Source of the DNA: Patescibacteria group bacterium
GTDB taxonomy: Bacteria; Patescibacteriota; Microgenomatia; Curtissbacterales; GWA2-41-24
Assembly: GCA_038063735.1 (NCBI GenBank)
Contig: JBBTUN010000004.1
Coordinates: 12,111 to 76,110, forward strand
Direction of reading: 5' to 3'
DNA length: 64,000 bases
Of the stretch, positions 42,537 through 64,000 are shown in pieces. The notes beneath the pieces were generated by a model. The model searched no databases and was not told where the DNA came from. It saw only the letters and a list, made by a program, of their open reading frames with translations. The position numbers and the translations under genes were made by a program. Positions within the stretch are counted from its first letter, which is position 1, and each line of letters opens with the position of its first letter.

Positions 42537-43289
42537 ATGAAGGGTGTTATTCTCGCCGGTGGTCTAGGTACTAGATTATATCCTCTCACGCACGCAACCA
42601 ATAAGCACTTACTCCCCGTTTTTGATCAGCCTATGATCTATTATCCAATTCAAACATTAACGCAAGCCGGAATCCAAGATATCCTAATTGTTGTTGGGGG
42701 ACCGCACGCCGGCGATTTTATTAGAGTACTTCAAAATGGCAAGGAATTTGGTATCAAGCATCTAGAGTATGCCTACCAAAATTCCGGAGACGGAGGTATT
42801 GCAGACGCTTTAAAATTGGCAGAAAGTTTTGCGGACAAAGACGCAATAGCAGTTATTTTAGGTGACAATTGCACAGACACAGATATTTCCATCGAAGTTA
42901 AAAACTTTAAAGAGGGCGCAGTAATTTTTCTCAAAGAAGTAGACGATCCTGCAAGATTTGGCATAGCACAGCTAGATAAAAACGATAACACAAAAGTAAT
43001 TGGTATAGAAGAAAAACCTCAGCAGCCCAAAAGCAATTTAGCCGTAACAGGAGTCTATATTTACGATAATAAAGTTTTTGACTACTGCAACCAAATAAAA
43101 CCGTCATCTCGTGGCCAGCTTGAGATAACCGATGTTAATAACATTTACATCCAAAAGGGAAAGCTGAGATGGGCTTCGCTTTCTGGTTTTTGGTCAGATG
43201 CCGGAACATTCGAAAGTCTTTACAGAAGCAACGTGTTCTGGGCGCGCAAAATCTTAAAAGACAAAGAAAAGGAATTAACCACTTTTTAA
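42537..43289 (+). CDS. sugar-1-phosphate nucleotidyltransferase (glucose-1-phosphate thymidylyltransferase RmlA-like, short form)
   Basis: GVILAGGLGTRLYPLT...K..LPV N-terminal nucleotidyltransferase signature. Located upstream of rfbB/C/D. Confidence 0.7.
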   Translation: MKGVILAGGLGTRLYPLTHATNKHLLPVFDQPMIYYPIQTLTQAGIQDILIVVGGPHAGDFIRVLQNGKEFGIKHLEYAYQNSGDGGIADALKLAESFADKDAIAVILGDNCTDTDISIEVKNFKEGAVIFLKEVDDPARFGIAQLDKNDNTKVIGIEEKPQQPKSNLAVTGVYIYDNKVFDYCNQIKPSSRGQLEITDVNNIYIQKGKLRWASLSGFWSDAGTFESLYRSNVFWARKILKDKEKELTTF

Positions 43290-43304
43290 CACAATTAATT
43301 AATT

Positions 43305-44318
43305 ATGACCAAAGTTTTAGTAACAGGTGGCGCCGGATTTATCGGCTCAAATTTCATCCGTTATTACATTAAAAAACATCCAAACCACGAAGTAATCAAT
43401 TTCGATAAGTTAACATACGCTGGGAATTTAGAAAACTTAAAAGATATCGATGGATTGCCAAATTATAAATTCACTAGAGGTGATATTGCCAATATTCACG
43501 ACGTCAAAGAAGCAATGCGCCAAGTAGACATTGTAGTAAATTTTGCGGCCGAATCTCATGTTGATAGATCGATTCTTGACCCGGCACCCTTTGTTATAAC
43601 AAATATTTTAGGCACTCAAGTTTTACTGGATGCGGCAAGGCACGTTGGCGTAAAAAGATTCCACCATGTCTCCACTGACGAAGTTTTTGGAGCATTAAAA
43701 TTATCTTCAAAAGAAAAATTTAAAGAAGATTCAAACTATCAACCGAACAGTCCCTACGCAGCATCAAAAGCATCATCTGACCATTTAGTTAGAGCCTACT
43801 GGGAAACATACAAGCTGCCGATAACAATAAGTAACTGTTCAAATAACTTTGGCCCATTTCAACACCCGGAAAAATTAATTTCGCTGGCAATAACTAACCT
43901 GCTGGAGGGAGAAAAGGTCCCTGTTTATGGGGATGGTCAATATGTAAGAGACTGGTTATATGTAGAAGACCATGTTGCAGCAATTGATCTAATCCTGCAA
44001 AAAGGAATAAGTGGCGAAACTTACTGCATTGGTGCAAACAATGACATACCAAATATCAAAATTATTAAAAAAATTCTTAAGATTTTAGGATTGAAAGAGG
44101 ACAGGATCGAATATGTCACTGACAGACCTGGTCATGATAGAAGGTATGCAATAAATGCTGCTAAGATTAAAAGAGAGCTCAAATGGAAGTCTCTATTTCC
44201 TTTTGACGAGGCATTAAAGCTTACCATTATGTGGTATCAAGACCATCTAGCATGGTGGAAAAGTCAAAAAGGAAAAGAATTTCAAGACTATTATCAGCTC
44301 CAGTATGTAAAAAGATGA
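43305..44318 (+). CDS. rfbB: dTDP-glucose 4,6-dehydratase
   Basis: VLVTGGAGFIGSNF Rossmann motif, a YAASK active site and the RmlB-typical length and motifs. Confidence 0.85.
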   Translation: MTKVLVTGGAGFIGSNFIRYYIKKHPNHEVINFDKLTYAGNLENLKDIDGLPNYKFTRGDIANIHDVKEAMRQVDIVVNFAAESHVDRSILDPAPFVITNILGTQVLLDAARHVGVKRFHHVSTDEVFGALKLSSKEKFKEDSNYQPNSPYAASKASSDHLVRAYWETYKLPITISNCSNNFGPFQHPEKLISLAITNLLEGEKVPVYGDGQYVRDWLYVEDHVAAIDLILQKGISGETYCIGANNDIPNIKIIKKILKILGLKEDRIEYVTDRPGHDRRYAINAAKIKRELKWKSLFPFDEALKLTIMWYQDHLAWWKSQKGKEFQDYYQLQYVKR

Positions 44319-44833
44319 ATTACAGTTATTTAAATCTAGAGTCAACTCAGGGAAAAATTGATGGAGTTATCCTGAGAAAACTTGTTGTGCACAAAGACCC
44401 AACCGGCTCACTTGTAGAAACTTTAAGAGAGGATTGGCAGGACGTTTTCAACCCGACTAGCCCATTTAAAATGCAATACATGTCCATTACACCCTCAAAA
44501 GTTGCCAGAGATGAAGATAAATGGCACGTCCACAAGCATCAAAAAGACAGGTTTATATGTGCCTCAGGTAAAATAGTTACGGCTGTTTTCGATCCTCGGG
44601 AAAACTCTCCAACCAATGGTAAGTTAAATTTATTTACAATGGGTCCAAATAATGAGGAGGAAATGTATATGATTGTAATCCCCCAAGAGACATATCATGG
44701 CTTTATGGTTGTTTCTACTGAGCCCGGTTATCTCTTAAATTTTCCGACTCAGCTATACAACTCTAGCGATGAAGGCCGAATAGAAAATAAAGGTGAGTTA
44801 AATTGGCAGAAAGTTAGGGAAGATTTTGGGTAA
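44315..44833 (+). CDS. rfbC: dTDP-4-dehydrorhamnose 3,5-epimerase-like cupin (RmlC family)
   Basis: Cupin fold with a WHVHKHQKDRFICASGK-like RmlC core. The start is an ATG overlapping the rfbB stop (ATGA). Confidence 0.55.
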   Translation: MNYSYLNLESTQGKIDGVILRKLVVHKDPTGSLVETLREDWQDVFNPTSPFKMQYMSITPSKVARDEDKWHVHKHQKDRFICASGKIVTAVFDPRENSPTNGKLNLFTMGPNNEEEMYMIVIPQETYHGFMVVSTEPGYLLNFPTQLYNSSDEGRIENKGELNWQKVREDFG

Positions 44834-45737
44834 TAGTTCAACTAAACTGGCAGTAATTGGTGCAAGCTCCATGGTAGGCTCGCGGTTTTGTGAGCAGCAG
44901 AATAAATTTCCACTTGTTAAAGCTGATTTAAATGGGGAGATTAGCGTCGACTTAACAAAACCGGATTCGCTGGAAGATTTTTTTAAGAAATATGAGTTTG
45001 GGGCGATAATTCTGTTTTCCGCATTTACAGATGTAGACGCGGCAGAAAAAGAAAGAAACAATAAAAATGGTATTGCCTGGAAAATAAACGTAAAAGGGGT
45101 TGAGGAAATTACCCGTCTTTGTAAAGAATACTCGAGAAAACTCATTTTTATTTCTACAGATTTTGTATTTGATGGCGAAAGCGGACCATACGCCGAAGAT
45201 GACGGGATTGGCAAGAATTTAGAAAAAATATCATGGTATGGAATAACAAAGATAAACGCCGAGCAAAAAATTAAAGAATTGACGACTAACTATTTAATAG
45301 TAAGGATAGCCTATCCGTACCGGTCCAGATTTCTCGAAAAAGACGATTTTGCAAAACAAATATTAAAAAAATTTAACGAAGGCACACTCTACCCCATGTT
45401 TACGGATCAAATAATTACACCCACATACATCGACGATATTGAACCGGCAATAAATTTGCTTCTTGAAAAAAACTCTCAGGGAATCTTTCATGTCGCAAGC
45501 CCCACCCCAACAACGCCATTCGCATTTGCCGAAAATCTGCTTACAAAGTTCGGTAAGGACAGTAAGCTCTTAAAAGAAGGGTCGCTCGTTGATCTTTTAA
45601 AAAACAATACTGTTACTCCAAGGCCGGTAAGCGGAGGACTACTGGTTGATAAAATATCCAACTTGGGTATAACACTTGCATCTTGGCAAGATGGGATTAC
45701 TAAAATTTTCGAAGATAGCCAAGGCCAATTGATTTGA
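44826..45737 (+). CDS. rfbD: dTDP-4-dehydrorhamnose reductase (RmlD family)
   Basis: SDR fold (VIGASSMVGS) and the STDFVFDG motif typical of RmlD. Confidence 0.7.
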   Translation: MGNSSTKLAVIGASSMVGSRFCEQQNKFPLVKADLNGEISVDLTKPDSLEDFFKKYEFGAIILFSAFTDVDAAEKERNNKNGIAWKINVKGVEEITRLCKEYSRKLIFISTDFVFDGESGPYAEDDGIGKNLEKISWYGITKINAEQKIKELTTNYLIVRIAYPYRSRFLEKDDFAKQILKKFNEGTLYPMFTDQIITPTYIDDIEPAINLLLEKNSQGIFHVASPTPTTPFAFAENLLTKFGKDSKLLKEGSLVDLLKNNTVTPRPVSGGLLVDKISNLGITLASWQDGITKIFEDSQGQLI

Positions 45738-45775
45738 AAGTATTTTTTTAGCTAAAATAAAACACCACATTTAAT

Positions 45776-47076
45776 ATGACCATAACAATAATAGGAGCAG
45801 GATATGTAGGCTTAGTAACCGCGATACTGTTTGCCGAACTTGGTAACGAGGTGTTTTGCGTTGATATTTCCAAGGAAAGGATCTCGGGACTAAAAAAGGG
45901 TGAAATACCTTTTTTTGAACCCGGACTATCCGAATACATAATTCGAAATAATAAAGAAGGACGTCTTAAATTTACGACAAGTTACAATGAATGTGTCCCA
46001 AAGTCCGATGTTGTTTTTATCTGCGTAGGTACTCCTCCCGGAAAAAATGGTGAAGCTGATTTAACCTATCTTTTCTCGGCGATAGAGGAAACTGCCAGGA
46101 ACCTAAAAGGATACACGCTCATTGTTATTAAAAGTACATTTCCGATTGGCTTTGAGAATGATTTTGAAGAGACAGTCAAAAAGCATGCAAAGGACAAATT
46201 CGAATTCGCAGCATCCCCCGAGTTTCTAAAAGAAGGCACAGCCCTAGAAGATGCATTTCATCCGGACAGAATAGTCATAGGGACAAACAGTCAAAGAGCA
46301 CAAAAATTACTGCTGGAGCTTCACGGTGCCCTGCCAGGTGAAAGAATAATTTGCGATATGCGCTCTGCACAGCTAATTAAATATGCTTCAAATTCATTTC
46401 TTGCAACTAAAATATCTTTCGCCAACGCCCTATCTGTCATTTGCGAAAAAACAGGTGCCGATGTAGAAAAGGTACTTCAGGGTGTTGGGGCAGATAAACG
46501 CATTAATCACGCCTTTTTAAAACCCGGTATTGGTTATGGCGGGTCTTGCTTGCCCAAGGACGTACTGGCATTTATCCACCAGGCAAGCACTTTCGATTAC
46601 AGTTTTGACCTTTTGAGGTCTGTCGATTCAATAAACACAACGCAAATTGATAGATTCATACAAAAAATAAGAGCGGCTCTCAGTGCCCAGGAAGATAAAA
46701 AAGCAAATCTGCAAAATTTCAAAATTGCGATTTTAGGCCTTGCGTTTAAACCAAATACCGATGACATGCGGGATGCCCCGTCAATTAAAATTATTAACGC
46801 ACTTCTTGAATTAAAAGCGGATATAGTCGTATATGATCCGCAAGCAATGGAAAATGCTAAAAAAATTATTAATAATGTCACTTTTGCAAAAAGTATGGAA
46901 GAAGCCATAACTGGTTGTGATGCCATGGTGATAGTTACCGATTGGCCGCAATTTTCCGAACTTGACCTAAGCGAAGTAAAAAAATTACTCAGGAAACCAA
47001 TAATTGTTGATGGACGAAATATTTACAGTAAATTCAAACTGGAAGAAATGGGATTTACCTATTTTAGTATTGGTAG

Positions 47077-47080
<4 letters not shown>
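45776..47080 (+). CDS. ugd: UDP-glucose 6-dehydrogenase family nucleotide-sugar dehydrogenase
   Basis: N-terminal Rossmann IIGAGYVGL, the catalytic-Cys motif GGSCLPKD and a C-terminal UDP-binding domain. Confidence 0.8.
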
Positions 47081-50230
<3,150 letters not shown>

Positions 50231-50249: not shown

Positions 50250-51755
50250 ATGTTTCTCACTACAAAAAGGTTTCAGCAAACGTTAATTATTATTTTAATT
50301 ATTACTGCGGTTTTTTTCCGTTTTTACAAAATTAGGGATCATGTTGTTTTTTTGGGAGACGAGGGACGTGACATGATAGTTCTTAGGAACATTTTTTTAG
50401 AGAAGCGATTACCTTTTTTAGGGCCGTCAGCGTCTGTGGGGGGATTTTATCTAGGACCAATTTATTACTGGATGGCGGCGCCATTTTTGCTCCTATCAAA
50501 ATTTGACCCTATAGGACCTTCGTATATGGTCGCATTGTTTGGTGTAGGTACAGTTCTATTACTTTATAAATTTTTAAAAGAAGCGGTTGGTTTTTGGCCA
50601 GCGGCTTTAGCAAGCCTACTTTACGCAACCGCTCCTTTAATTGTTCGATATTCACGCTCATCTTGGAACCCCAACCCACTGCCGTTTTTTTCTCTGCTTC
50701 TCATATATTTTATTTATAAGGGTATTAAAAGCCAGAAATATTTATTTTTCGTAGGAGCTGGTGCCTGCCTTGGTGTGGCTATTCAGCTTCATTATCTAGC
50801 TTTAGTATTGGCACCACTAGCATTTTTTATAATTCTTTTGAATGAAAAATTTAGAAGAATTCCAGCCATTGCCGCATTGGCATTTCTTGGTTTTTTAATA
50901 ACATTTTCCCCCTTTTTAATATTTGAGATCCGTCATAATTTTCCGAATTTTAGATCAATTTTAGAATTTGTAACAAGAGGTAACACTGTTGGGTACAGCA
51001 AACCAAATTTTATTTGGACGCTTACCGATAACGGGAATATTTTTTTCGAATGGATATCTCAAATAACTGGCACGGTATATACCAGAATTTTATTTTCCAT
51101 TTTAACAGTATCGCTGGCACTGGGAACAATTATTGCCTGGAAAAATAAGGATCATAAATTAATCTTTACCATTGGGGTAATTTACTTTATAGGGGGCATA
51201 TTTTTATTAAGGTCGTACGCTGGCCAGTTGTACGATTATTATTTAGGAAGCATTTTCCCTGCCCCATTTTTTGTTTTCGGGCTTACGGCATTTCTATTTT
51301 GGAAAAACTTGCCATTAAAAATAATAGTTACATCAGCTAGCATTTTAATATTGGGGGCATTTTTAAGTCAGGGGTTTTACACAAAAAAACCAAACATGTT
51401 AATTCTGCAGACCGAATCCATTGCAAATTTTATTATCGATAAAACTGATAATGCGTCTTACAATTTCGCCCTAATCTCAAACAGCAATTCGGATTATGCG
51501 TATAGGTACTTTTTAGATATAAAACATAAAAGCCCCAAAAAATTAGAAGAACTGGTTACGGATCAGTTGATAGTAATTTGTGAGTCGAAAGAGTGTTCAC
51601 CCCTGGGAAATCCCTTGTGGGAAATCGCAGGTTTTGGGCGGGCAGAGATAGATAGTGAGTGGGATCTAGATAAATATGGATTTAAGCTATACAAACTGGT
51701 CCACTTGCCAGGAGAACCAAGCCCTGCCGGGAAGCCAGTAGTAAAAGGTATTTAA
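50250..51755 (+). CDS. GT-C fold membrane glycosyltransferase, paralog of 27050-28582
   Basis: It shares the GDEGRD / GPSASVGGFYLGPIYYW / FEIRHNFPNF blocks with the 27050 ORF and has 11 or more TM helices. Confidence 0.55.
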   Translation: MFLTTKRFQQTLIIILIITAVFFRFYKIRDHVVFLGDEGRDMIVLRNIFLEKRLPFLGPSASVGGFYLGPIYYWMAAPFLLLSKFDPIGPSYMVALFGVGTVLLLYKFLKEAVGFWPAALASLLYATAPLIVRYSRSSWNPNPLPFFSLLLIYFIYKGIKSQKYLFFVGAGACLGVAIQLHYLALVLAPLAFFIILLNEKFRRIPAIAALAFLGFLITFSPFLIFEIRHNFPNFRSILEFVTRGNTVGYSKPNFIWTLTDNGNIFFEWISQITGTVYTRILFSILTVSLALGTIIAWKNKDHKLIFTIGVIYFIGGIFLLRSYAGQLYDYYLGSIFPAPFFVFGLTAFLFWKNLPLKIIVTSASILILGAFLSQGFYTKKPNMLILQTESIANFIIDKTDNASYNFALISNSNSDYAYRYFLDIKHKSPKKLEELVTDQLIVICESKECSPLGNPLWEIAGFGRAEIDSEWDLDKYGFKLYKLVHLPGEPSPAGKPVVKGI

Positions 51756-51896
51756 AATAAAATTGTGCCGAAAAATGACATAAAGAATGAAAAAAAGTTC
51801 TAAAATATTAAAAAAATTTCCAAGACGAGAGCTAAATCGAGAATAGCTTTAGAAAAACTTATTACTCCAAATAATCTTTTTATTACTGCAATTTTT

Positions 51897-53142
51897 TTGG
51901 TGGTTTCAGTCCTATTCTGGTATCTCAGGTTGGCAAACTTCGAAAATAATATGAATTTCATTTTAGACCAGCCAAGTCATATGTTCGCTGCAAAAGAAAT
52001 GGTAGATACGAGAAAAATACCATTAATAGGACCAGTGGACGGAACTAGAGTAGTGAATGGAAAATCTTATTTTATTGGATCACAGTATTATTATATTCTT
52101 GGTGTTTTAGGGTTAGCTCTGAAGTGGGACGTAGTTTCAATTACAAAATTTATTTTATTTTACTGGTCGATAACAGGACTAATAATGTTTTTTTGGATAG
52201 CCAAAAAATTGGATTTATGATCCGCGCTTTTTGCATACACGATATTTTCGTTAACGCATTACATGATCGTGTTTAACAAAATGATAATAAATCCAAATTT
52301 TTTACCGTTAATTTCAATACCGCTCTTGTATTTTTTTTTGGAAAGCAATTACAAAAAACAGGCAAATTTTCTGGCTTGCAACCGGAGTTTTCGCAGGCCT
52401 AATATTTAGCTTCCACTTTTCAGGGATACTGTGGTTTCTGTTAATAGCTTTGATTTGGGTTGTTAAGTTTATAAAGAAGAAAACAAAATTAATGTCAATA
52501 ATATTGTTTGCACTGGGTGTCATATTAGGAAATTTTCCCTATGTAATATTTGAGCTAAGACATAATTTTTATAACCTAAAAACTTTCCTGGAAAACGGTG
52601 CAAATCCCCACAATCTAACTTTTGCAACACCGTTTTATTACTACGGTTTTATGTCCATTTACCTCTGGGCTATTGCAATAATTTATTTCCAAGTCGGTAA
52701 GAAAATTTGTTACCAAAATAAAGTAATTATTTTGCTGGTCTCATTGTTACTAGTGGTTAAGGGTAATTTTCCCATCCCAGATCATGCTTTTGGCATGCCA
52801 TCTGGGTGGACTGTGGGTAAAGAAAAATTCGTGGCCGCCAAAATTTGCGAAGATAATAATAAGAAAAATTTTGAAGTTGCAAGCCTTATTTCGGGAGACT
52901 ACCGAGCAGAGGAGTTAAGATGGTGGACTCAGCTTTGCGGCTCAAAATCGTTGCCTTACGATGGGTATCCTATTGCTGACACCCTGTTTTTGATAGATCG
53001 CGGAGAAACTGCACGGGACATTCACCTACCTGCTTGGGAAATTGCCACAATGTATCCAAGAAAAGTTGAATATGCTATAAACTTGGACGATGACGTATGG
53101 TTTTACAAATTAACTCGAACAAGAGAGAATATAACTAACTAA
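51897..53142 (+). pseudogene. decayed third paralog of the GT-C glycosyltransferase (frameshifted; core motif degenerate)
   Basis: The 51897-52220 piece has IPLIGPVDGTRVVNGKSYFIGSQYYY (cf. GPSASVGGFYLGPIYYW). The 52450-53142 piece has FPYVIFELRHNFYNLKTFLENGANP (cf. SPFLIFEIRHNFPNFRSILEF). They are separated by about 230 nt readable only in other frames. The DxGRD motif is replaced by DQPSHM. Confidence 0.55.
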
Positions 53143-53150: not shown

Positions 53151-54095
53151 ATGATAAATAGTTTAACAACCGCCAAACAACTTGATAAAAAAACAATAAG
53201 TAAGATTTTTACAAGTGCAGACAAAGTAAAATCTAAAAGATTTAATAAAAATTTGCTTCAGGGTAAACTAATGGCCACCTTATTTTACGAACCATCGACC
53301 AGGACACGACTATCCTTTGAATCGGCCATGCAAAAACTTGGAGGCAATGTAATCACTACAGAAAATGCTGCTGAATTTTCATCAGCCATAAAAGGTGAGA
53401 CGCTAGAAGACACTATACGGGTAGTTCAGTCGTTTGCAGATGTAATTGTACTCAGGCATTTTGCAGAAGGAGCATCAGAAATCGCTGCAGAATATTCCAA
53501 AGTACCAATCATTAATGCTGGAGACGGTAGGGGCGAACACCCCACACAAGCCTTGCTCGACCTTTACACGATATTTTCCAAGTTTCCTAGTGTTGGCACA
53601 AAAAAAATACGGATTGCAATGGTTGGTGATCTAGCTAACGGCAGAACAGTCCACTCTTTAAGCTATTTACTTACACTCTTCAACCAGATTGAACTGATTT
53701 ACATTTCTCCAAAAGCTTTGTCCATTCCAGAATCATTGAGGGAATTTCTAAAAGACAAAAAAATGCAATTTACCCAGTCGGAAAAATTAGATGACGCATT
53801 AAAAATAGCAGATGTTATCTATCAGACCAGAATACAAAAGGAAAGATTTGTTTCCTCGGGTGACGGTGCATATAGTGAAAGCGAGTATCTTCATTATTTT
53901 GGTAAATATGTGATAGATAAAAAAACTTTGGTAAAAATAAAAAAAAGTGCTGTCATAATGCACCCGTTACCACGTGTTAACGAAATTTCACCGGAAATTG
54001 ACTCAGACCCGAGAGCCATCTATTTTGAGCAGGTACAAAACGGACTTTACATAAGAATGGCCCTTCTTATTTACCTCTTTGACAAAAAGAGTTAA
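53151..54095 (+). CDS. pyrB: aspartate carbamoyltransferase catalytic subunit
   Basis: STRTRLSFE carbamoyl-phosphate site, HPTQ and HPLP motifs (the ATCase rather than OTCase pattern). No pyrI or other pyr genes are nearby. Confidence 0.75.
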   Translation: MINSLTTAKQLDKKTISKIFTSADKVKSKRFNKNLLQGKLMATLFYEPSTRTRLSFESAMQKLGGNVITTENAAEFSSAIKGETLEDTIRVVQSFADVIVLRHFAEGASEIAAEYSKVPIINAGDGRGEHPTQALLDLYTIFSKFPSVGTKKIRIAMVGDLANGRTVHSLSYLLTLFNQIELIYISPKALSIPESLREFLKDKKMQFTQSEKLDDALKIADVIYQTRIQKERFVSSGDGAYSESEYLHYFGKYVIDKKTLVKIKKSAVIMHPLPRVNEISPEIDSDPRAIYFEQVQNGLYIRMALLIYLFDKKS

Positions 54096-54131: not shown

Positions 54132-54887
54132 ATGTTTGATAAACCACATTTATCCGTAATAATCCCTGCTTACAACGAGGAGCCCAATTTTGAAAAGGGT
54201 GCCATAGATGAAGTCCCAAAATACTTAGAAAAACAGGATTATACACACGAAATACTAATAGTAGATGACGGATCAAGTGACAATACTGCAAAACTAGCTC
54301 TGGAATTTGCTAAAAAAAATAAAAATGTAAGAGTCATCAAAAACCCGCACGAAGGAAAAGCAGAGACAGTAAAAAGAGGCGTACAAGAAGCAAAAGGTGA
54401 GTATATACTCTTTACGGATTTCGACCAAGCGACACCTATTCACGAGGTAGAAAAACTCCTCGCTTATTTCCCGGAGTACGACATAGTTATTGGATCAAGA
54501 CAATTGCCTGGTGCAAAACGGGAGAAAGAACCATTTCATAGGCATTTGATGGGTCTTGTATTTAATATTCTGGTTCAAATCATTGCAATACGCGGAATAT
54601 GGGACACACAAGCCGGGTTTAAATGCTTTAAAAGTGATACAGCAAAGGACTTATTTGAAAAGTTAAAAGTTTATGGTAAAGGTAAAAAAGTTCAAGGCGC
54701 GCTCGTAACAGCTTTTGACGTTGAGCTTTTGTTTATAGCCAAAAAACATAAATTCAAAATCAAAGAGGTGCCAATAATATGGCATCACGTATCAACGACT
54801 CGCGTAAACCCAATTAAGGATTCCTTAAGGATGCTAAGAGATGTAATTAAAATTCGCCTTAATGACTTCCGTGGCGTCTATAAATAA
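54132..54887 (+). CDS. GT2 family glycosyltransferase (Dpm1/polyprenol-phosphate glycosyltransferase-like)
   Basis: LSVIIPAYNE...VDDGSSDNT...DFDQATP motifs. Overlaps the next membrane GT. Confidence 0.75.
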   Translation: MFDKPHLSVIIPAYNEEPNFEKGAIDEVPKYLEKQDYTHEILIVDDGSSDNTAKLALEFAKKNKNVRVIKNPHEGKAETVKRGVQEAKGEYILFTDFDQATPIHEVEKLLAYFPEYDIVIGSRQLPGAKREKEPFHRHLMGLVFNILVQIIAIRGIWDTQAGFKCFKSDTAKDLFEKLKVYGKGKKVQGALVTAFDVELLFIAKKHKFKIKEVPIIWHHVSTTRVNPIKDSLRMLRDVIKIRLNDFRGVYK

Positions 54888-56256
54888 TTTCCTAAAGAGA
54901 AACATTCTATATATCCTGCTCATAATTATTGCTCTTGCGTTCAGAATTTGGGATATTACCGAATCTTTCCCGTTCGACTACGACCAGGCAATCTCGGCGC
55001 AAATTGCATACGATTTTTTCGTGAATCACAAATTGTCTCTTATTGGTCAAGAGTTGTCCTTTCAGGGTTTTTACCTTGGGCCTTTACATAATTGGGTTCA
55101 ATTCACCCCGTATTATTTTTGTAATCTTCAACCTGATTGTGTTCCGCATTTTTACCTGATTATTTCAATAATAACGATAGTTATAACCTATTTTTTATTA
55201 AAAAGAATATTTTCAACAGCCATCGCATTTATTGTTGCTCTAATTTACTCCATATCGTATACAGCTATTTCATTCGAAAGGGGTGTAAACAGTAATTATT
55301 TTTTATTTTTTACCACCGTTGTTGTTATTTACTGCTTACATGAATACTATTTGAATAAAAACAAATTTCTAATAATTGGCGCATTTTTTACAGGTATCGC
55401 TGTCGTAAATTTTAACCCTGTTTTTATTTTCTCAACCGCATTTTTTTACATATCGACAATCTTAAGAGGCCGGATCAATATAAAATATTACGTGCTCTCG
55501 CTGGTTGCTTTTTTTATTAACTATTTACCACTGGCAGTTTTTGATTATCGACATGACCATATCCTTCTTAATAATTTGGCAAACTTCTTTAATCAAAACA
55601 CGGCAAACGAAGATTTTTTTTATAGACTGCATTTTTTGATAGGTAAAATTTTTGTACCTTTTAACACATATTATTTATTCCATTCAACAAAAATTTGGTA
55701 CGTAATTATATTTCTTACTACATTAATTCCAGGTGTGATAGTTATCCTAAAAAGCAAAAGTAAATTATACATATCTCTCCTGATTTGGCCACCGCTCGTA
55801 ATTTTGGGATTTCTCTTTTATAAGGGTCATATACCTGATTATTATTTTCAACAATTTGTAGTTGTGATTCTAATAATTTTAGCATTTGCCCTCGCAAAAA
55901 AACCTATAATCGCGATCGCGTTTATTGCCTTGCTAACATATGTAAATGTAAATCTCCTCGTGCATTCAAAGTACCCGATAAATTACCAGCTTAAAAAGAA
56001 AGTAGTAAATTCTATTCTAGAAAGTACAAAGGAAGATTCTTTTAATGTTTACTACAGTATGCCACCAGGGCTAAATACGGGTTATTCGACTATTTTTAAG
56101 CTATATCAAAGATACCCTCAAGAAAATCAGAAAAATCTTTATATTATCGACTATTCTGATGCCAAGTCTTTCGATATGAAAAAGTACGCTCAACTTGGCA
56201 AAGTAACTCAAGTTCAGTCATTTGATAGTTTTCTTAGAGTTGTTTCAGTAAAATGA
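54862..56256 (+). CDS. GT-C-like polytopic membrane glycosyltransferase (divergent relative of the 27050/50250 paralogs)
   Basis: Multi-TM protein with an N-terminal loop FDYDQAISAQIAYDF...GQELSFQGFYLGPLHNW, comparable to the D.GRD/GP.AS..G.YLGP block of the other paralogs. Confidence 0.45.
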   Translation: MTSVASINNFLKRNILYILLIIIALAFRIWDITESFPFDYDQAISAQIAYDFFVNHKLSLIGQELSFQGFYLGPLHNWVQFTPYYFCNLQPDCVPHFYLIISIITIVITYFLLKRIFSTAIAFIVALIYSISYTAISFERGVNSNYFLFFTTVVVIYCLHEYYLNKNKFLIIGAFFTGIAVVNFNPVFIFSTAFFYISTILRGRINIKYYVLSLVAFFINYLPLAVFDYRHDHILLNNLANFFNQNTANEDFFYRLHFLIGKIFVPFNTYYLFHSTKIWYVIIFLTTLIPGVIVILKSKSKLYISLLIWPPLVILGFLFYKGHIPDYYFQQFVVVILIILAFALAKKPIIAIAFIALLTYVNVNLLVHSKYPINYQLKKKVVNSILESTKEDSFNVYYSMPPGLNTGYSTIFKLYQRYPQENQKNLYIIDYSDAKSFDMKKYAQLGKVTQVQSFDSFLRVVSVK

Positions 56257-56263
56257 GATACCT

Positions 56264-57463
56264 ATGACCAAACAAGAAAAAGTGCTAATGACACTTGGCA
56301 TTTTAATTTACTCGTTACTTACGATATTTTCCTATGCCTACGTTGATTTAAATCTTACGTTAAGCCAAAACTCAACAGCGCTAGCCTTCGTCTCCTTTAT
56401 GCAAATTCTAGGTTATTTTCAAAGAAGTCTTAGCACCAAACTATATATATTGATTGTTTCGGTATTATTTTCTTATCTCCTATACCATCTCTATTTGGCA
56501 GCAAAGGGTTCCTTGTCCATTAAATACGTCTTTAAAATTGTGATCGTTTTATCAGTCCTTAGCGCCCTTGCGTATCCATTCTTATCTTCTGACGTGTTCA
56601 ATTATCTTTTTGACGCCAAAATAGTCTTAAAATACCACTTAAACCCTTACACCCACCGAGCTATGGATTTTCCAAACGACGATTGGGTACGATTTATGCG
56701 CTGGATACATAGATATTCACCATACGGACCCATGTGGCTAATTTTATCAATCTTTCCTGCATTTTTTAGTTTTGGAAAATTTACGCTTAACCTGCTCTTA
56801 TTCAAAATACTAATGGCGGCCTTTCATATTTTGAATACATATTTGATTTACTCAATTCTTAGAAAGATCAATCCATCAAAGGTGATTTTTGGGGTCTCCC
56901 TTTACGGTTTAAACCCGCTTTTTATTATAGAAGGCATCATCAATGCTCATAACGACGTCGTTATTGCCTCCTTTATGTTGCTGTCAATATATTTAGTTAT
57001 TAATAAAAATCATATCGCAAGTTTTGTGTCACTAATAATAGGGTTTTTAATGAAATATTTCCCTATCCTTAATTTGCCGTGGCTGATTTTGTTCGCGATA
57101 AGAAATAAGTTAAGTATTAAAACTTTTATACTTCTCAATATATTGACAATGATTTTTTTCACCTTTATTTACTCAACTTTTAAAGTTTCCGTGCCATTTG
57201 TGTCCAGTGGCGCAACCCAGACCCAATTTCAACCGTGGTATCTATTTTGGACAGTTCCGTTGCTAGTCCTCACTTTAAGAAAAGACTTTATTGCAGTAGC
57301 CCTTGCGTTGTCTATTGGGGCCCTGATGCGCTATTTACCTTATTTATACTGGGGAGACTGGTCTCACAACAACACAATCATTTTTATGCAAGCGACGACC
57401 ATAGCACCTGCAATTGCTGTCGCTTTTTTCTTTTTAGTTAAAGAACACTTGCTCAAGAAATGA
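56264..57463 (+). CDS. polytopic membrane protein, possible GT-C/DUF2029-like glycosyltransferase
   Basis: About 10 TM helices and 399 aa, embedded between glycosyltransferases. The assignment is by context. Confidence 0.3.
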   Translation: MTKQEKVLMTLGILIYSLLTIFSYAYVDLNLTLSQNSTALAFVSFMQILGYFQRSLSTKLYILIVSVLFSYLLYHLYLAAKGSLSIKYVFKIVIVLSVLSALAYPFLSSDVFNYLFDAKIVLKYHLNPYTHRAMDFPNDDWVRFMRWIHRYSPYGPMWLILSIFPAFFSFGKFTLNLLLFKILMAAFHILNTYLIYSILRKINPSKVIFGVSLYGLNPLFIIEGIINAHNDVVIASFMLLSIYLVINKNHIASFVSLIIGFLMKYFPILNLPWLILFAIRNKLSIKTFILLNILTMIFFTFIYSTFKVSVPFVSSGATQTQFQPWYLFWTVPLLVLTLRKDFIAVALALSIGALMRYLPYLYWGDWSHNNTIIFMQATTIAPAIAVAFFFLVKEHLLKK

Positions 57464-57464
57464 C

Positions 57465-59846: not shown

Positions 59847-61423
59847 AAAATAAATACACCATCCTATTAATCGTTTTCACATTAGTTGCCCTCTGGCCAT
59901 TTTTCAAACACAGCTTTTTTGAGAGTCATGACGGAGAGTGGATGATTATCAGGTTTTCTGCTTTTCACCAGGCATTAGTTTCCGGCCAATTTCCGGTAAG
60001 GTATGTAGATAGGCTTAACAATAATTACGGATACCCGGTTTTAAACTTTTTGTACCCGCTGCCTTTTTATCTAGCCGAAATTCCAAAACTGCTTGGCTTC
60101 AACTTCACAAACAGTATAAAAATAATCTTCGCAGTTTCCACACTCGTCTCAACACTCGCAATGTTTGCAGCGCTATCGCAAAGGTTCTCAAGGGGCGCGA
60201 GTTTTGTGGGGAGTTTCGTGTATCTTTTTATTCCTTACAGGTTTGTAGACCTCTATGTGAGAGGCTCACTTGGTGAGAACCTCTCCTTTGCAATAATTCC
60301 ACTAGCTCTTTTATCAATTTTTAAAATTGCTAAAAATAGCCATATTTTTTATCCATTTTTATCTATTTCAGTAGCTTTACTAATCTTATCCCACAATGTA
60401 ATTGCATTTTTGTTTTTACCTGTGTTAACTGCTATTTCTTTGATTGAAATCAAAAAGGATAAAATCAAAGCTCTTTTTGCAATAATACTCGGTGTTTTAA
60501 TGTCCACCTTCTTCTGGTTTCCGGCACTTTACGATCTGCAATATGTGCGGCTGTCACAAATGAGGGTAGCAAACCCCATCGAACACCTTATTCCGCTTAC
60601 TAAAATTATTTACTCACAATGGAATTTTGGCTCGGTACCAGGACAATTAAATGGTTTTTCTGCACAGCTAGGTGTTATTACAGCTTTAATGATATGCATA
60701 TCGATTTTCATAAAAATTAGAAAAAAAGATTATTCTAAATTAGAAACTTTTGCAATTGTAGTAATAATCGTCTCTGCTTTTCTGATTTCAGATGTGTCAA
60801 GCGTGGTCTGGAAGAAAATACCCTTAATAGACATAATTCAATTCCCATGGAGATTGCTATCTTTAGTGGTGTTCTCAACTGCAATACTGTCTGCTTACTG
60901 CATCGAAAAAATAAATAAACCTATTCTAACTGTTGGTATTGTCTTTTTAGTATTTGCCCTTGTAATTTCTTACACAAAACCAAAAGGATTCTTAAATTAT
61001 CCAGACAGTTACTATTCAACCAACGAGGCATCAACAACCGTCCTTGATGAATACATGCCGCTTTGGGTGAAAGGCAATCCACAGAGAGTCTATTCAAAAA
61101 TTATACCAGGCTTATTTTCAATTTCCGGTTCTATAATTAAATCTGCAGATTACTCAGTGAGAATCAACGTCTGGGAGGACACAAAACTAAAGATTGCCAC
61201 AATATACTTTCCAGGGTTTATTGCGACAATTGATGGTAAGCCAACTCCGATTAGTTATGACTCAGACGGACTAATTAATATTCAATTGCCAAAGGGTGAT
61301 CACGAAGTTATAATCAAATACGGTAAATCACCAATTCATTTAGCGTCAGAATTAATTTCACTCACAGCTTCATTTATTGTTGGTATATTATTTTTTAGAT
61401 TATGGCAAAAACAAAATTCTTAG
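59819..61423 (+). CDS. YfhO-like/GT-C polytopic membrane protein (second, shorter copy)
   Basis: 534 aa with an N-terminal SHDGEWMIIRFSAFHQALVSGQFPVRY block and many TM helices. Overlaps the previous gene by 28 nt. Confidence 0.4.
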   Translation: MVNKIQKILKNKYTILLIVFTLVALWPFFKHSFFESHDGEWMIIRFSAFHQALVSGQFPVRYVDRLNNNYGYPVLNFLYPLPFYLAEIPKLLGFNFTNSIKIIFAVSTLVSTLAMFAALSQRFSRGASFVGSFVYLFIPYRFVDLYVRGSLGENLSFAIIPLALLSIFKIAKNSHIFYPFLSISVALLILSHNVIAFLFLPVLTAISLIEIKKDKIKALFAIILGVLMSTFFWFPALYDLQYVRLSQMRVANPIEHLIPLTKIIYSQWNFGSVPGQLNGFSAQLGVITALMICISIFIKIRKKDYSKLETFAIVVIIVSAFLISDVSSVVWKKIPLIDIIQFPWRLLSLVVFSTAILSAYCIEKINKPILTVGIVFLVFALVISYTKPKGFLNYPDSYYSTNEASTTVLDEYMPLWVKGNPQRVYSKIIPGLFSISGSIIKSADYSVRINVWEDTKLKIATIYFPGFIATIDGKPTPISYDSDGLINIQLPKGDHEVIIKYGKSPIHLASELISLTASFIVGILFFRLWQKQNS

Positions 61424-62376
61424 TAACTGGAGGCGCCGGATTTATAGGATCCGAAATTGTCAGGCAACTTCTGTTAGTGGGATATGATGTAACTGTAGCT
61501 GACAATCTTTCCAAAAAGGACGCACAAATCGACCCCAAAGCGAAATTTCTCAAAATAGATCTTACAGACAAGCTAGAAACAAAAAAAGCTTTCAAAAATA
61601 TAGATATATGTATAAACGCTGCAGCAAAAATTGGAGGCATTGGTTACTTTCATAAGTATCCCGCAACAATTCTTTCGGAAAATAATAAAATTTATTCTTC
61701 CACATTCGAAGCGGCAGCAGAAGCGGCGGTAAAAAGAATTGTATACATTTCATCGTCGATGGTATTCGAGTCTGCAACAAAATTTCCATCAAAGGAAGAA
61801 GATGTAGAAAAAATTCCACCGCCTGTTTCCTCTTATGGCTTTTCGAAACTAACCGGAGAATGGTATTGTCACTCGTTTTATGATCAGTATAAATTACATT
61901 ACTCCATTTGCAGACCCTTTAATGCATACGGCGTTAATGAGTTTCCGGAAAGGGAAGTGGGCTACGCCCATGTTATACCGGATTTAGTCAGAAAAATATT
62001 ATCCGGCCAGTATCCTTTAGAAATGCTGGGAAATGGAAAGCAAACTCGTTGCTTTACTCATGTTTCAGATGTTGCTGGAGGCATCATCGCAGTAGCCTTA
62101 CACCCAAAGGGTCAGAATCAAGATTTTAATATAGGATCTGATAAAGAGATAAATATGGAAGAATTGGCTCGAAAAATTTGGCAGGTCATGAAAGTTAAGA
62201 AACCTTTTAAAGTTAAATACGTAAAAGGGTTTAAATTTGATATTAAAAAACGTGTCCCAAATGTTTCAAAAGTAAAAAGGCTCATAAATTGGGAACCACA
62301 GGTAAAATTTGAAGATGGATTAAAGGAGGTTGCAGCTTGGCTAGAAAGTCAAAAGCAGCAGGGAAAGCTCAAGTAG
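61402..62376 (+). CDS. NAD-dependent nucleotide-sugar epimerase/dehydratase (SDR family)
   Basis: FLVTGGAGFIGSEIV Rossmann motif and a YGFSK catalytic motif. Confidence 0.7.
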   Translation: MAKTKFLVTGGAGFIGSEIVRQLLLVGYDVTVADNLSKKDAQIDPKAKFLKIDLTDKLETKKAFKNIDICINAAAKIGGIGYFHKYPATILSENNKIYSSTFEAAAEAAVKRIVYISSSMVFESATKFPSKEEDVEKIPPPVSSYGFSKLTGEWYCHSFYDQYKLHYSICRPFNAYGVNEFPEREVGYAHVIPDLVRKILSGQYPLEMLGNGKQTRCFTHVSDVAGGIIAVALHPKGQNQDFNIGSDKEINMEELARKIWQVMKVKKPFKVKYVKGFKFDIKKRVPNVSKVKRLINWEPQVKFEDGLKEVAAWLESQKQQGKLK

Positions 62377-63668
62377 TATCTATTGTAGGAATTGGTAGAG
62401 TGGGTCTTCCACTTGCATTGTTTCTTGCAGAAGGCGGATGCAAAGTTTATGGTCTTGATGTCGATTCCCGGAAAGTAAATGTAATCAGTAAAGGCGCTAT
62501 GCCATTTAGAGAGGACGGGGCAGAAGAACTGCTTAAAAAACATATCGGCAAATCTTTTATTCCCACAACGGACTTTAGCAATATCTCGAAAAGCAAAATA
62601 ATTATTTTAACCCTGGGGACACCGGTGGATGACAATATGAACCCGTCATTGGTGCAAATAGATAGGGCTCTCGAGTCGATAAAACCCTTTTTTAGGCCGG
62701 GACAGCTGCTTGTGCTAAGATCAACAGTTTCACCAGGAACAACAAATTATGTCAGATCCTCTATAAACGAAGTAGGAAAAGTTAAAGTGGGAGTGAATTT
62801 TTACCTAGCCTTTTGTCCCGAAAGAATAGCAGAAGGCAAGTCATTAAAAGAACTTAGCCAAATACCACAAATTGTTGGTGGTGTTGACAGGGCAAGCACA
62901 ATAAAAGCAGCTCAATTTTTCCAAAGCCTTGGAATAGAGGTTAATAAGTCTGATGATGTTTCCGCGGAACTATCCAAATTATTCACAAATATGTATAGAT
63001 ACATAAACTTTGCAATAGCAAATGAATTTATGATTCTGGCTGGGAATTATAACCGTGATATCTATAAAATTACAGACCTTGTCAACAAAAATTATAAAAG
63101 AGGCGGCCTGTCTCTTCCTGGCTTGACGGGTGGTCCATGTTTATTTAAAGACGGATTTTTTTTAATCAGCGATGTACCCTTTGCCGATCTTATTTCCACT
63201 AGTTGGAAAATTAATGAATCTATCCCGTTATATCTTATAAACAAAATAAGACAACGCAGAAAACTGGAAGGCAAAAAAGCTGTAATACTGGGTCTTGCGT
63301 TTAAAGCAGACATTGATGATACAAGAGAGTCACTCGCCTTTAAGGTTAACAAGGCATTGGAACGAGAAAGAGCGAAAGTATTTTTACATGATCCCTATAT
63401 CGCCGAATATCAAACAAATTTAAAGGAAACATTAAAAGACGCAGATTTTGTCTTTATTGCAACCAATCACTCATACTACAAAAAATTGGATATCGCCGAA
63501 ATAAAAAAACTAGTCTCAAAAAATTGCGTTATTTGTGATGTTTGGAATGTATTTAAGACAAACAGAATCATATTTACAATTAATTCACTAGATACTCAAA
63601 AAAACGGTAATACACCTACCTTGGAAGAATTTGAAAACAATCAAGGAATCTTCGAAAGTCTGCTCTGA
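62337..63668 (+). CDS. UDP-N-acetyl-D-mannosamine/glucosamine dehydrogenase-like nucleotide-sugar dehydrogenase
   Basis: N-terminal Rossmann IVGIGRVGLPLA, the UDP-glucose/GDP-mannose dehydrogenase family architecture and a catalytic-Cys region GGPCLFKD. The start is uncertain, with a 40-nt overlap with the upstream gene. Confidence 0.65.
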   Translation: MARKSKAAGKAQVVSIVGIGRVGLPLALFLAEGGCKVYGLDVDSRKVNVISKGAMPFREDGAEELLKKHIGKSFIPTTDFSNISKSKIIILTLGTPVDDNMNPSLVQIDRALESIKPFFRPGQLLVLRSTVSPGTTNYVRSSINEVGKVKVGVNFYLAFCPERIAEGKSLKELSQIPQIVGGVDRASTIKAAQFFQSLGIEVNKSDDVSAELSKLFTNMYRYINFAIANEFMILAGNYNRDIYKITDLVNKNYKRGGLSLPGLTGGPCLFKDGFFLISDVPFADLISTSWKINESIPLYLINKIRQRRKLEGKKAVILGLAFKADIDDTRESLAFKVNKALERERAKVFLHDPYIAEYQTNLKETLKDADFVFIATNHSYYKKLDIAEIKKLVSKNCVICDVWNVFKTNRIIFTINSLDTQKNGNTPTLEEFENNQGIFESLL

Positions 63669-63676
63669 AATTTAGA

Positions 63677-64000
63677 ATGAAATTATCAATAATAATACCT
63701 GTATACAATGAAGGCGCAGTTATCACCAAAACAATCAATCAGGTAGAAAAAGCCGTAAAAACCCCACACGAGCTACTGATAATTTACGACATGGACAAAG
63801 ACACAACTGTAGTACCAGTTAAAAAAATTCAAAAAAAATATACAAACGTAAAGCTTGTTAAGAATATATATGGTAAGGGGGCATTGAATGCCTTAAAAAC
63901 AGGCTTAGTCAAGGCAAGCGGTGCTGCGGTATGCGTAATGATGGCAGACTTAACTGATGACGCAAAAGTGGTTAACACAATGATGGACAAATTTAATAAA
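63677..64000 (+). CDS. GT2 family glycosyltransferase (Dpm1-like), 3' end outside the window
   Basis: LSIIIPVYNEGAVI...IYDMDKDTT...DLTDD GT2 N-terminal motifs. The ORF runs off the window end. Confidence 0.7.
   Translation, partial: MKLSIIIPVYNEGAVITKTINQVEKAVKTPHELLIIYDMDKDTTVVPVKKIQKKYTNVKLVKNIYGKGALNALKTGLVKASGAAVCVMMADLTDDAKVVNTMMDKFNK

Follow-up and report, generated by a model that had tools for sequence, protein, structure and literature searches.

We analysed a stretch of 64,000 nucleotides from a Patescibacteria group bacterium (contig JBBTUN010000004.1, positions 12,111 to 76,110; hereafter the window), the distal part of which, from 42537 to 64000, carries genes for nucleotide-sugar synthesis together with GT2 glycosyltransferases and polytopic membrane glycosyltransferases of the GT-C type.

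Gene content and extent of the locus

Searches of Pfam, NCBIfam and the sequences of the Protein Data Bank (PDB) found all the named open reading frames (ORFs) of this region on the + strand (Table 1). They reproduced the order, from an RmlA-like gene through to a terminal GT2, of an earlier reading made from the DNA letters alone (the sequence-only reading), which had set out a superlocus of about 22 kb. The region is real, but it does not end where that reading put its boundary, and the genes run on past 64000. On the contig (locus L004 in Table 1) follow, in this order, the rest of a 232-aa GT2, a PIG-V-like GT-C (Mannosyl_trans2, 26.7 with a cut-off of 22.4), a 476-aa GT-C matched in hhalign at 96.8% to GTC_A, the first GT-C of the region, a 569-aa polytopic protein, a PMT_2 GT-C (53 bits), a second PTPS-like GT-C, a Wzx-type flippase 8 kb past the window end (Polysacc_synt_3, 183 bits) and another GT2. 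This adds four further supported GT-C genes in the at least 10 kb past 64000. For the 569-aa protein (L004 14630-16339), which carries a GDEYD motif after its first hydrophobic segment, hhalign gave no link to GT-C enzymes (at most 4%, from only 3 sequences). Leloir enzymes of the GT2 and GT4 families are located downstream, none of them in the window. The region is the front half (~21-22 kb) of a larger locus that measures at least 31 kb on the contig and is longer in relatives.

Coding density over 42537-64000 is 91% when the single pseudogene is left out. Starts and stops overlap at 47077/47080, 48995/48998, 54862/54887, 59819/59846 and 61402/61423, and because such overlaps are many among the genes of the locus they point to coupling.

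Table 1. Features of the glycan locus and its surroundings (scores are followed by the model cut-off in brackets where one applies)
Feature	Position	Strand	Basis of assignment
RmlA-like sugar-1-phosphate nucleotidyltransferase, short form, 250 aa	42537..43289	+	Pfam NTP_transferase 189 bits; NCBIfam rmlA 242.9 (360.65)
dTDP-glucose 4,6-dehydratase RfbB	43305..44318	+	TIGR01181 462.8 (365.1)
Divergent RmlC-like cupin, 172 aa (ENA gene call)	44315..44833	+	Pfam dTDP_sugar_isom 47.5 (27); TIGR01221 36 (155.75)
RmlD-like dTDP-4-dehydro-6-deoxyhexose reductase	44871..45737 (start per ENA gene call)	+	Pfam RmlD_sub_bind 151 bits; TIGR01214 166 (224)
UDP-glucose 6-dehydrogenase (Ugd/TuaD-like)	45776..47080	+	Three UDPG_MGDP_dh domains; NDP-sugar dehydrogenase subfamily 450 (189.8); TuaD model 472.6 bits
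Rmd	47077..48018	+	Best PDB matches 2PK3 (8e-66), 6X3B (4e-51); next 4e-33
Gmd	48021..48998	+	TIGR01472 445.8 (415)
Polyprenyl-phosphate glycosyl synthase like dolichol-phosphate mannose synthase (DPMS), GT2 fused to GtrA/DPMS 4-helix membrane domain	48995..50230	+	Pfam Glycos_transf_2 and GtrA_DPMS_TM (68.5 bits)
GTC_A, PMT_2/ArnT-like GT-C, 501 aa, C-terminal extracytoplasmic domain	50250..51755	+	PMT_2 52.8 (26.1)
Pseudogene of GTC_A-type paralog	51787..53142	+	45-59% identical to intact paralog in locus L013
Aspartate carbamoyltransferase pyrB, housekeeping	53151..54095	+	TIGR00670 329.6 (236.95)
Short Dpm1-like GT2, 251 aa, putative polyprenyl-phosphate sugar synthase	54132..54887	+	Best PDB match DPMS 5MLZ (2.7e-17), then ArnC, GtrB
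GTC_B, PMT_2-type GT-C	54862..56256	+	PMT_2 28.2 (26.1); hhalign to GTC_A 100% over 405 columns
MptA/MptB-family GT-C, 399 aa, about 9-10 transmembrane segments	56264..57463	+	Precomputed Pfam PF26314 MptA_B_family match
YfhO-family GT-C, 793 aa	57465..59846	+	Pfam YfhO PF09586 113.4 (28.5)
PTPS_related-family GT-C, 534 aa	59819..61423	+	Pfam PTPS_related 36.2 (26.4); Pfam YfhO not met
Extended short-chain dehydrogenase/reductase (SDR), NDP-sugar epimerase/dehydratase/decarboxylase	61402..62376	+	Pfam Epimerase 186 bits
NDP-sugar 6-dehydrogenase (UDP-ManNAc-dehydrogenase-like)	62337..63668	+	TIGR03026 325.6 (189.8)
N-terminus of 232-aa Dpm1-like GT2, truncated by window end	63677..64000	+	Translation; full gene L004 11341-12039
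Variable GT-C slot	L088 4942-9900; same region L089, L091, L092, L098, L107; L004 12060-18045		
Outlying GT-C GTC_up, 510 aa	27050..28582	+	No Pfam match; blastp to GTC_A 2.5e-19; hhalign to GTC_A and GTC_B 100%
Outlying short Dpm1-like GT2, 227 aa, overlaps stop of 27050	28582..29265	+	Glycos_transf_2 119 bits
Undecaprenyl-diphosphatase UppP/BacA (context)	29991..30770	+	Pfam BacA 254.6 bits
UDP-glucose 4-epimerase GalE (context)	37670..38623	+	TIGR01179 265.3 (262.3)

The three nucleotide-sugar pathways of the sequence-only reading are indeed present, for a dTDP-6-deoxyhexose, UDP-glucuronate and GDP-D-rhamnose, and an SDR/dehydrogenase pair forms a fourth route. The RmlA-, RfbB-, RmlC- and RmlD-like proteins all score above the Pfam gathering thresholds, the best PDB matches of the RmlC-like cupin being dTDP-sugar isomerases or RmlC (1.6e-5), and this branch certainly yields a 6-deoxyhexose. 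Both enzymes of the GDP-D-rhamnose pathway are encoded, Gmd with a score above its cut-off and Rmd with a wide gap between the next PDB match and its two best ones, which are solved GDP-4-keto-6-deoxy-D-mannose reductases. The SDR of the fourth route has mixed best PDB matches (Pal, GalE, UDP-glucuronate decarboxylase and GDP-mannose 3,5-epimerase, 1e-34 to 1e-28), and models for UDP-ManNAc dehydrogenase score under their cut-offs on its partner at 62337.

The GT2 and GT-C enzymes

The GT2 at 48995 aligns end to end with the Pyrococcus DPMS 5MLZ (7.6e-29), membrane domain included, and its D96-G-D98 falls on the DAD motif of that enzyme; the DxD is kept in 72 orthologs. The shorter GT2 at 54132 is related to it (hhalign 99.8% over 230 columns to the 48995 family) and keeps D96-x-D98-Q99 in 35 orthologs, its full-length NCBIfam alignments being to AglJ and to a dolichyl-phosphate hexose transferase model, neither at cut-off level. 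Full-length alignments below cut-off were likewise obtained for the two other short GT2s, at 28582 and 63677, with AglJ, dolichyl-phosphate hexose transferase, PpgS, PgfS and ArnC; the best were AglJ (5e-32, full length) and ArnC (5e-20) for 28582, PgfS and PpgS for 63677. The nearest relatives of these GT2s are polyprenyl-phosphate sugar synthases (5MLZ, ArnC, GtrB), so that the label Dpm1-like, which they had been given from the sequence, is a fair one, and their activity would be to load sugars onto a lipid carrier.

PDB sequence searches with the 501-aa protein at 50250 (GTC_A), alone or as a 48-sequence profile, and with the proteins at 57465 and 56264 gave no match, and the GT-C fold was therefore established by structure prediction and profile comparison. 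The AlphaFold2 model of GTC_A, built from the 48-sequence alignment (pLDDT 86.3, pTM 0.87), was compared with the PDB by Foldseek. ArnT (5F15) was the top match (E 3.6e-8, template modelling (TM) score 0.61), followed by ALG12, STT3/PglB/AglB, Pmt4, EmbC, DPY19 and ALG3. The 41 best-ranked matches (E ≤ 0.03) are GT-C enzymes, with the GT-C-related PIG-U, a subunit of GPI transamidase, lower down, and transporters appear at a Foldseek probability of at most 0.2. The first-loop motif L35-G-D37-E38-G-R-D41 is conserved to at least 90% in 79 sequences.

The other polytopic proteins could be linked to GTC_A through family alignments built from related loci, for which GT2 and Wzx controls gave at most 1% and 0.4% in hhalign. 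GTC_A, GTC_B and the outlying protein at 27050 form one family (hhalign 100%), in agreement with the GT-C and GT2 pair that the sequence-only reading had placed at 27050-29265. The protein which that reading could describe only as polytopic, at 56264, is a GT-C of the MptA/B family. This membership is supported at the family level only and does not extend to an MptA equivalog, with 45.4 bits (5e-12) to the NCBIfam alpha-(1->6)-mannopyranosyltransferase A (TIGR03459) and a cut-off of 439.4; it reaches 80% to GTC_A in hhalign and keeps S108-x-D110-x-F-N-Y in 31 orthologs. Of two supposed YfhO proteins, the one at 57465 stands, with a weak match to PgfM2 at its C-terminus, while the one at 59819 belongs to the YfhO-homologous PTPS_related family (hhalign 98.9% to the YfhO family, 95.7% to that of GTC_A). 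All have conserved acidic residues in the first predicted outer loop: D37-E38 and D41 in 50250, D41 in 54862, D34/D38 in 27050, D110 in 56264, D63 in 57465 and D38 in 59819. Structure prediction and hhalign thus place the polytopic proteins among GT-C glycosyltransferases and not among transporters. Intact GT-Cs number 6 in the window, and the contig carries at least 10; they fall into at least four distinct families. Iterated GT2/GT-C pairs, as proposed earlier, hold insofar as both types of enzyme are present, but a strict pairing is not seen, the ratio in the region being 3:5 plus one pseudogene.

Conservation across Microgenomates

The 501-aa GTC_A protein was found identical in the ENA assembly ERZ1292625 (Hain_H41_01um) and in two Logan assemblies, whose contigs match the window at 100% identity over 12-21 kb. 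The habitat, as the record name is read, is Hainich groundwater from well H41, 0.1 µm filter fraction. The closest relatives of this protein come from Candidatus Curtissbacteria (57-68% identity), of the Microgenomates group according to NCBI; the GC content of the window is 34-44%. Gene calls in the H51 assembly (563 instead of 534 aa, 299 instead of 324 aa) raised the possibility of a swapped GT-C/epimerase cassette, which was rejected because alignment gave only a scaffold gap of Ns and 8 single-nucleotide differences at 99.8% identity.

A scan of one genome per GTDB species gave 359 relatives of GTC_A. The best 80 loci (38-69% identity), from genomes labelled Curtiss-, Levy-, Chisholm-, Collier-, Gottesman- and Roizmanbacteria, were compared after labelling their ORFs by phmmer with the window proteins. 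Many third-party metagenome-assembled genomes with the locus (L008, L009, L012, L015 and others) are titled 'uncultured Gammaproteobacteria' or 'Pseudomonadales', labels that are evidently wrong. The order rml-ugd-rmd-gmd-(DPMS-like GT2)-(ArnT-like GT-C) is kept in all six groups, and the ten-gene order from rmlA to GTC_A persists at only 38-45% protein identity across these six candidate phyla. A conserved GT2/GT-C pair does exist: in 66 of 72 loci the DPMS-like GT2 immediately precedes GTC_A, and in none of the 72 are the two more than two genes apart, the other 6 having a single ORF in between, in 5 cases another short GT2. Upstream, among the 53 loci with at least 9 kb of sequence, we found ugd in 53, rmd and rmlD in 49 each, rfbB in 48, gmd in 47 and rmlA in 43. 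GalE adjoins RmlA in several Curtissbacteria loci, and a distant GalE homolog (86-124 bits to 37670) lies between gmd and the DPMS-like GT2 in Levybacteria-type loci.

The second module, which joins a Dpm1-like GT2 to the MptA-like GT-C and in most cases continues with YfhO and PTPS-like genes, is present in 27 of the 57 loci with at least 4 kb of downstream sequence. Levybacteria-type loci stop after GTC_A and lack it. Downstream of GTC_A they have look-alikes of a helix-turn-helix regulator and of SecD and SecF by N-terminal motif, no family search having been made, and other housekeeping genes; on the same motif reading, the idea that these might be pilus genes, as for pilin glycosylation, found no support. 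In other lineages the outlying GT-C at 27050 has its orthologs within the main locus. Only a few slots vary, namely that of the pseudogene and the GT-C stretch from the downstream GT2 to the PTPS-like gene. Between the 232-aa GT2 and the second PTPS-like gene there are one to four GT-C-like genes, depending on the Curtissbacteria species, with flanks that are 65-72% identical. The next 10 kb in related Curtissbacteria contain 3-4 more GT2s, a cyclophilin, a PMT_2-like GT-C, a methyltransferase, a GT4 and a second YfhO. The sequence-only reading had taken multiple paralogous pairs as a sign of diversification. This is unsupported because the GT-C families are ancient and distinct, each with orthologs in other orders, and because the core order is class-wide; what the comparison shows is a core envelope locus that is conserved and varies in a few GT-C slots, not mainly a series of recent iterated paralogous pairs.

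In the first of these slots, the GT-C pseudogene noted from the sequence proved genuine. Its counterpart in the Curtissbacteria locus L013 is an intact paralog of 435 aa with 8 transmembrane segments, flanked by the GTC_A ortholog and pyrB. In the window, the gene has a TTA-to-TGA nonsense change (52218-52220), one extra T in a T9 run (52331-52339), where T8 would restore the frame, and a probable shift in an A7 run (51810-51816), the sole ATG (51787) being in a different frame. An assembly error is not the cause, since three assemblies carry the identical sequence. Phase variation is possible, both frameshifts lying in homopolymers (A7, T9), although the nonsense codon argues for decay. Recoding of TGA was rejected, as TGA ends 22 of 56 window genes and the two homopolymer frameshifts accompany it. 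The pyrB gene that follows is a clear equivalog of aspartate carbamoyltransferase, which rules out a disguised sugar carbamoyltransferase, and its position is shared by most of the Curtissbacteria-type loci L007-L026 that reach past GTC_A (not L018) and is found in no other order.

The comparison also bears on the dTDP branch, whose product is likely rather than certain to be L-rhamnose, because RmlA, RmlC and RmlD remain below their NCBIfam equivalog cut-offs, leaving RfbB alone of the four above, and because rmlC was detected in few related loci (15 of the 53 that have 9 kb or more of upstream sequence). Where RmlC would be expected, Levybacteria-type loci have an ORF of 160-180 aa (L055 3242-3724, L062 2083-2625), NUDIX-like by motif with no family search made. 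Given this ORF and the rmlC count, the branch may not end in L-rhamnose in every lineage.

Possible function of the locus

We consider it reasonably probable that the region is the start of a conserved cell-envelope glycan locus, in a Curtissbacteria-like bacterium, that uses multi-component transmembrane glycosylation. The logic is established in other bacteria: from a nucleotide sugar a GT2 loads polyprenyl phosphate, the lipid-linked sugar is flipped and a GT-C transfers the sugar outside (PMC5836110, PMC8035078, PMC11127046). Here, a dTDP-6-deoxyhexose (probably L-rhamnose), UDP-glucuronate, GDP-D-rhamnose and a further oxidised or epimerised UDP-sugar would be made in the cytoplasm. At the inner face of the membrane the GT2s at 48995, 54132, 63677 and 28582 would each load one sugar onto polyprenyl phosphate. 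For flipping, the locus offers two candidates, the GtrA_DPMS_TM domain fused to the GT2 at 48995 and the Wzx/MOP protein downstream. On the outer face, the PMT_2/ArnT-like, MptA/B-like, YfhO and PTPS-like GT-Cs could then extend or decorate a surface glycoconjugate with the lipid-linked donors, its backbone being most probably built by the downstream Leloir GT2 and GT4 enzymes together with the Wzx flippase. UppP, near the locus, would fit recycling of the lipid carrier.

The direction of this flow and the nature of donors, sugars and acceptor are what we infer from enzyme families, folds, catalytic motifs and a conserved gene order. The position of the conserved GT2/GT-C pair beside gmd and rmd suggests GDP-mannose or GDP-D-rhamnose as the donor. 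A uronic acid is equally allowed by Ugd, by the GalE-like gene that many loci have between gmd and the GT2, and by the ArnT-like fold, and the Rgt system of Rhizobium provides a precedent for such a donor. As acceptor, a wall- or membrane-anchored glycopolymer seems somewhat more likely than protein glycosylation alone, because ArnT, which has a lipid acceptor, is the best fold match, because MptA- and YfhO-type enzymes act on polymers in known cases, because a Wzx flippase and Leloir glycosyltransferases lie downstream and because the core locus is conserved rather than hypervariable.

Several results weigh against this reading of the locus. Scans of the window and of the 10 kb that follow it gave no initiating phosphoglycosyl transferase, Wzy, LCP ligase or free-standing GtrA, and of a Wzx/Wzy-type locus only the downstream Wzx-type flippase was seen, Bac_transf, Glycos_transf_4, Wzy and Wzz being absent from the scanned ORFs. 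A GDP-mannose pyrophosphorylase was not found in the window. The short GT2s, all below cut-off in NCBIfam, could be ordinary Leloir enzymes. Co-orientation is weak evidence for one system because from 16117 to 64000 every gene is on one strand, with housekeeping genes such as pyrB mixed in. Promoter-like and terminator-like sites are in total no more frequent than in shuffled controls; all that is suggestive is where the three best promoter-like sites fall, at 42499, 54079 and 61286, each a module boundary.

Among the known systems, teichoic acid glycosylation in Firmicutes, with CsbB/GtlA as GT2, GtcA as flippase and YfhO/GtlB as GT-C (Rismondo et al. 2018, PMC5836110; PMC8035078), shares with the present locus a GT2 that loads undecaprenyl phosphate and a YfhO-type GT-C for transfer outside, represented here at 57465. 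In contrast, the window has 6 intact GT-Cs of the at least ten on the contig, in four or more families, with three to five GT2s; the GtrA-like domain is fused to a GT2 with no free-standing GtcA or GtrA, and teichoic acid genes were not seen. The ArnC/ArnT system of lipid A (5F15/5EZM) likewise has Ugd upstream, a carrier-loading GT2 and an ArnT-fold GT-C whose first periplasmic loop carries acidic residues. However, ArnA, ArnB and ArnD are absent here, the lineage is Gram-positive-like within the Candidate Phyla Radiation (CPR) and has no lipid A, the GT2 at 48995 is nearer to archaeal DPMS (7.6e-29) than to ArnC (1e-5), and the GT-C is 11% identical to ArnT. The O-antigen side-chain systems, of the GtrA/GtrB/Gtr type or with GT136 pentofuranose transfer (Kelly et al. 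2024, PMC11127046), also combine a synthase for a lipid-linked donor, a flippase and a GT-C, and act after export of the polymer. They are small, mobile and variable and add one side-chain residue, whereas the locus described here is large, has a class-wide core and brings its own nucleotide-sugar supply. The likeness of the GT2 at 48995 to the Pyrococcus furiosus enzyme 5MLZ extends over the catalytic domain, the interface helices, the 4-helix membrane domain and the DxD, but the host is bacterial, the carrier is presumably undecaprenyl phosphate and the gmd, rmd and ugd neighbours would allow GDP-mannose, GDP-D-rhamnose or a uronic acid.

A TasA/SipW-like fibre module (39408-42481) lies directly upstream of rmlA. 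It begins with a secreted protein that resembles TasA/camelysin and whose signal peptide is SipW-dependent (TIGR04088, 25.4 with a cut-off of 19), continues with an archaeal/SipW-type signal peptidase (TIGR02228, 99 with a cut-off of 51.85) that carries a Pro/Ser/Thr-rich linker and a lamin-tail domain in fusion, and ends with a secreted RTX-repeat protein. Signal peptidase and RTX protein precede rmlA in L019 and L023 too. Lamin-tail-domain proteins at 35164-36078 and 40074-41435 have long Pro/Ser/Thr-rich linkers, for example PTPSPDPSPTSAPSSTTSTKSPSPTPKSSPK. In other bacteria such linkers are typical substrates for O-glycosylation, and these proteins are possible targets of the PMT_2-type GT-Cs.

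An alternative that we regard as unlikely is that the GT2/GT-C modules mainly O-glycosylate secreted proteins, such as S-layer proteins, type IV pilins, the TasA-like fibre protein or those with Pro/Ser/Thr-rich linkers, as do PMT/Ppm1 in Actinobacteria and Pgf in Streptococcus mutans. Three to four GT-Cs match PMT_2, the loop-1 D-E pair is present in GTC_A, and proteins that might serve as substrates are encoded close by, the SipW-type peptidase with its linker, the TasA-like and RTX proteins directly upstream and the lamin-tail protein at 35164. PDB entry 2PK3, the best match of Rmd, stems from Aneurinibacillus thermoaerophilus, where GDP-D-rhamnose feeds an S-layer glycan. The likeness to Pgf (PgfS, PgfM1, PgfE, PgfM2) comprises PgfS as the best NCBIfam match for three of the four GT2s (48995, 54132 and 63677), PgfM2 at the YfhO C-terminus and an epimerase, but the scores are far below equivalog level (53-70 versus 500 bits; 25 versus 1500 bits) and the target adhesin is absent. 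On the other hand, the nearest structure to the GTC_A model is ArnT, an enzyme with a lipid acceptor, at a TM of 0.61 compared with 0.31-0.48 for Pmt1, Pmt2 and Pmt4 chains; no protein in the window matches PMT (PF02366), its GT-Cs matching only PMT_2 (PF13231), or has a MIR domain. MptA-like and YfhO enzymes act on polymers in known cases, the at least 10 GT-Cs with Wzx and Leloir glycosyltransferases imply a complex glycan, and in Levybacteria the pair is followed by the SecD/SecF-like (from motifs, with no family search) and housekeeping genes rather than by pilus or S-layer genes.

The multiplicity and diversity of the GT-Cs would also suit the assembly of a membrane-anchored lipoglycan wholly outside the cell, the downstream Leloir enzymes then serving another product, which we think quite improbable. 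The model would be lipomannan and lipoarabinomannan (LAM) of mycobacteria and corynebacteria, for which Ppm1 supplies polyprenyl-phosphate mannose, MptB, MptA and MptC polymerise and PimE takes part (PMC3485146, PMC2157549). As in LAM assembly, where growth is extracytoplasmic, a homolog of polyprenyl-phosphate mannose synthase stands beside several GT-Cs including an MptA/B member, which directly follows the Dpm1-like GT2 in 27 of 57 loci, and no priming phosphoglycosyl transferase was found in Pfam scans. However, the MptA match is far under the equivalog cut-off (45 versus 439 bits) and thus holds for the family only, neither GT4 enzymes of the PimA/PimB type nor genes for a phosphatidylinositol anchor were seen, rhamnose, glucuronate and D-rhamnose supply belongs to the same cluster, and Levybacteria retain the first module only. 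We know of no lipid-anchor chemistry in CPR bacteria.

That the genes do not form one system at all, but are collinear, independent envelope genes with separate targets kept adjacent by general CPR synteny, could be read from the single-strand run of 16117-64000 with its SecA, RF, FtsEX, Tsa and pyrB genes, from the missing second module in Levybacteria, from the best promoter-like sites at module boundaries and from the distance of 20 kb to the outlying GT-C/GT2 pair, but this is very improbable in view of the ten-gene order from rmlA to GTC_A, kept at 38-45% identity across six candidate phyla, and of the overlaps that join nucleotide-sugar genes to GT2 and GT2s to GT-Cs.

A further-reaching reading, which is speculative and rather doubtful, would have a surface glycopolymer that defines the lineage built largely outside the membrane by the at least 10 GT-Cs from lipid-linked monosaccharides, in the manner of arabinogalactan or LAM. 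The conserved pair, always beside gmd/rmd and ugd, would then use a lipid-linked donor new to science, for instance polyprenyl-phospho-D-rhamnose or a polyprenyl-phospho-uronic acid, and the product would be a main determinant of host attachment of these ultra-small cells. Such outside assembly is not known beyond Actinobacteria.

The mechanism class is not new, all components come from known families and NCBI annotates these proteins generically. The locus stands out in having so many GT-Cs of such diverse families, in uniting them with four routes of sugar supply and in its class-wide core. The CPR literature that could be searched makes only general mention of many glycosyltransferases and of rml genes (PMC5220378, PMC7143001, PMC12911398), and we found no account of the locus or of GT-C arrays in CPR bacteria in the searchable literature, which is not proof of absence. 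Surface chemistry and host attachment of CPR/Patescibacteria are largely unexplained, and the locus, which takes several percent of a ~1 Mb genome with its core order kept across six candidate phyla, offers a concrete gene set for the main envelope glycan of Microgenomates. Tractable parts are the DPMS-like enzyme, the ArnT-like transferase with its confident model and the predicted sugars, L- and D-rhamnose and glucuronate.

The rest of the window encodes SecA, RF, FtsEX, a PcsB-like protein, TsaE, Sua5, Lon, an H+-pyrophosphatase, aminoacyl-tRNA synthetases, Lgt and lamin-tail proteins, a content that fits a streamlined CPR genome. At 9222-10608, the lipoprotein intramolecular transacylase Lit (103.8 bits) is immediately upstream of Lgt, an arrangement that points to lipoproteins in the lyso form that some Firmicutes have. 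Side by side at 17460-20238 are genes for two soluble proteins (453 and 471 aa) without a Pfam match; each protein carries an HExxH motif (HEIGH, HEPAH) and may be an uncharacterised metallopeptidase. A 108-aa ORF at 37347-37673, after TsaE and between Sua5/TsaC and GalE, matches only positions 30-84 of the TsaD profile; it could be a remnant or else an unusually short relative of TsaB. On the - strand, 2491-8842 holds a copper/redox cluster with a DsbD_2-cupredoxin fusion, a protein with seven transmembrane segments and no Pfam match, an AhpC/redoxin protein, an HMA P-type ATPase and a cupredoxin.

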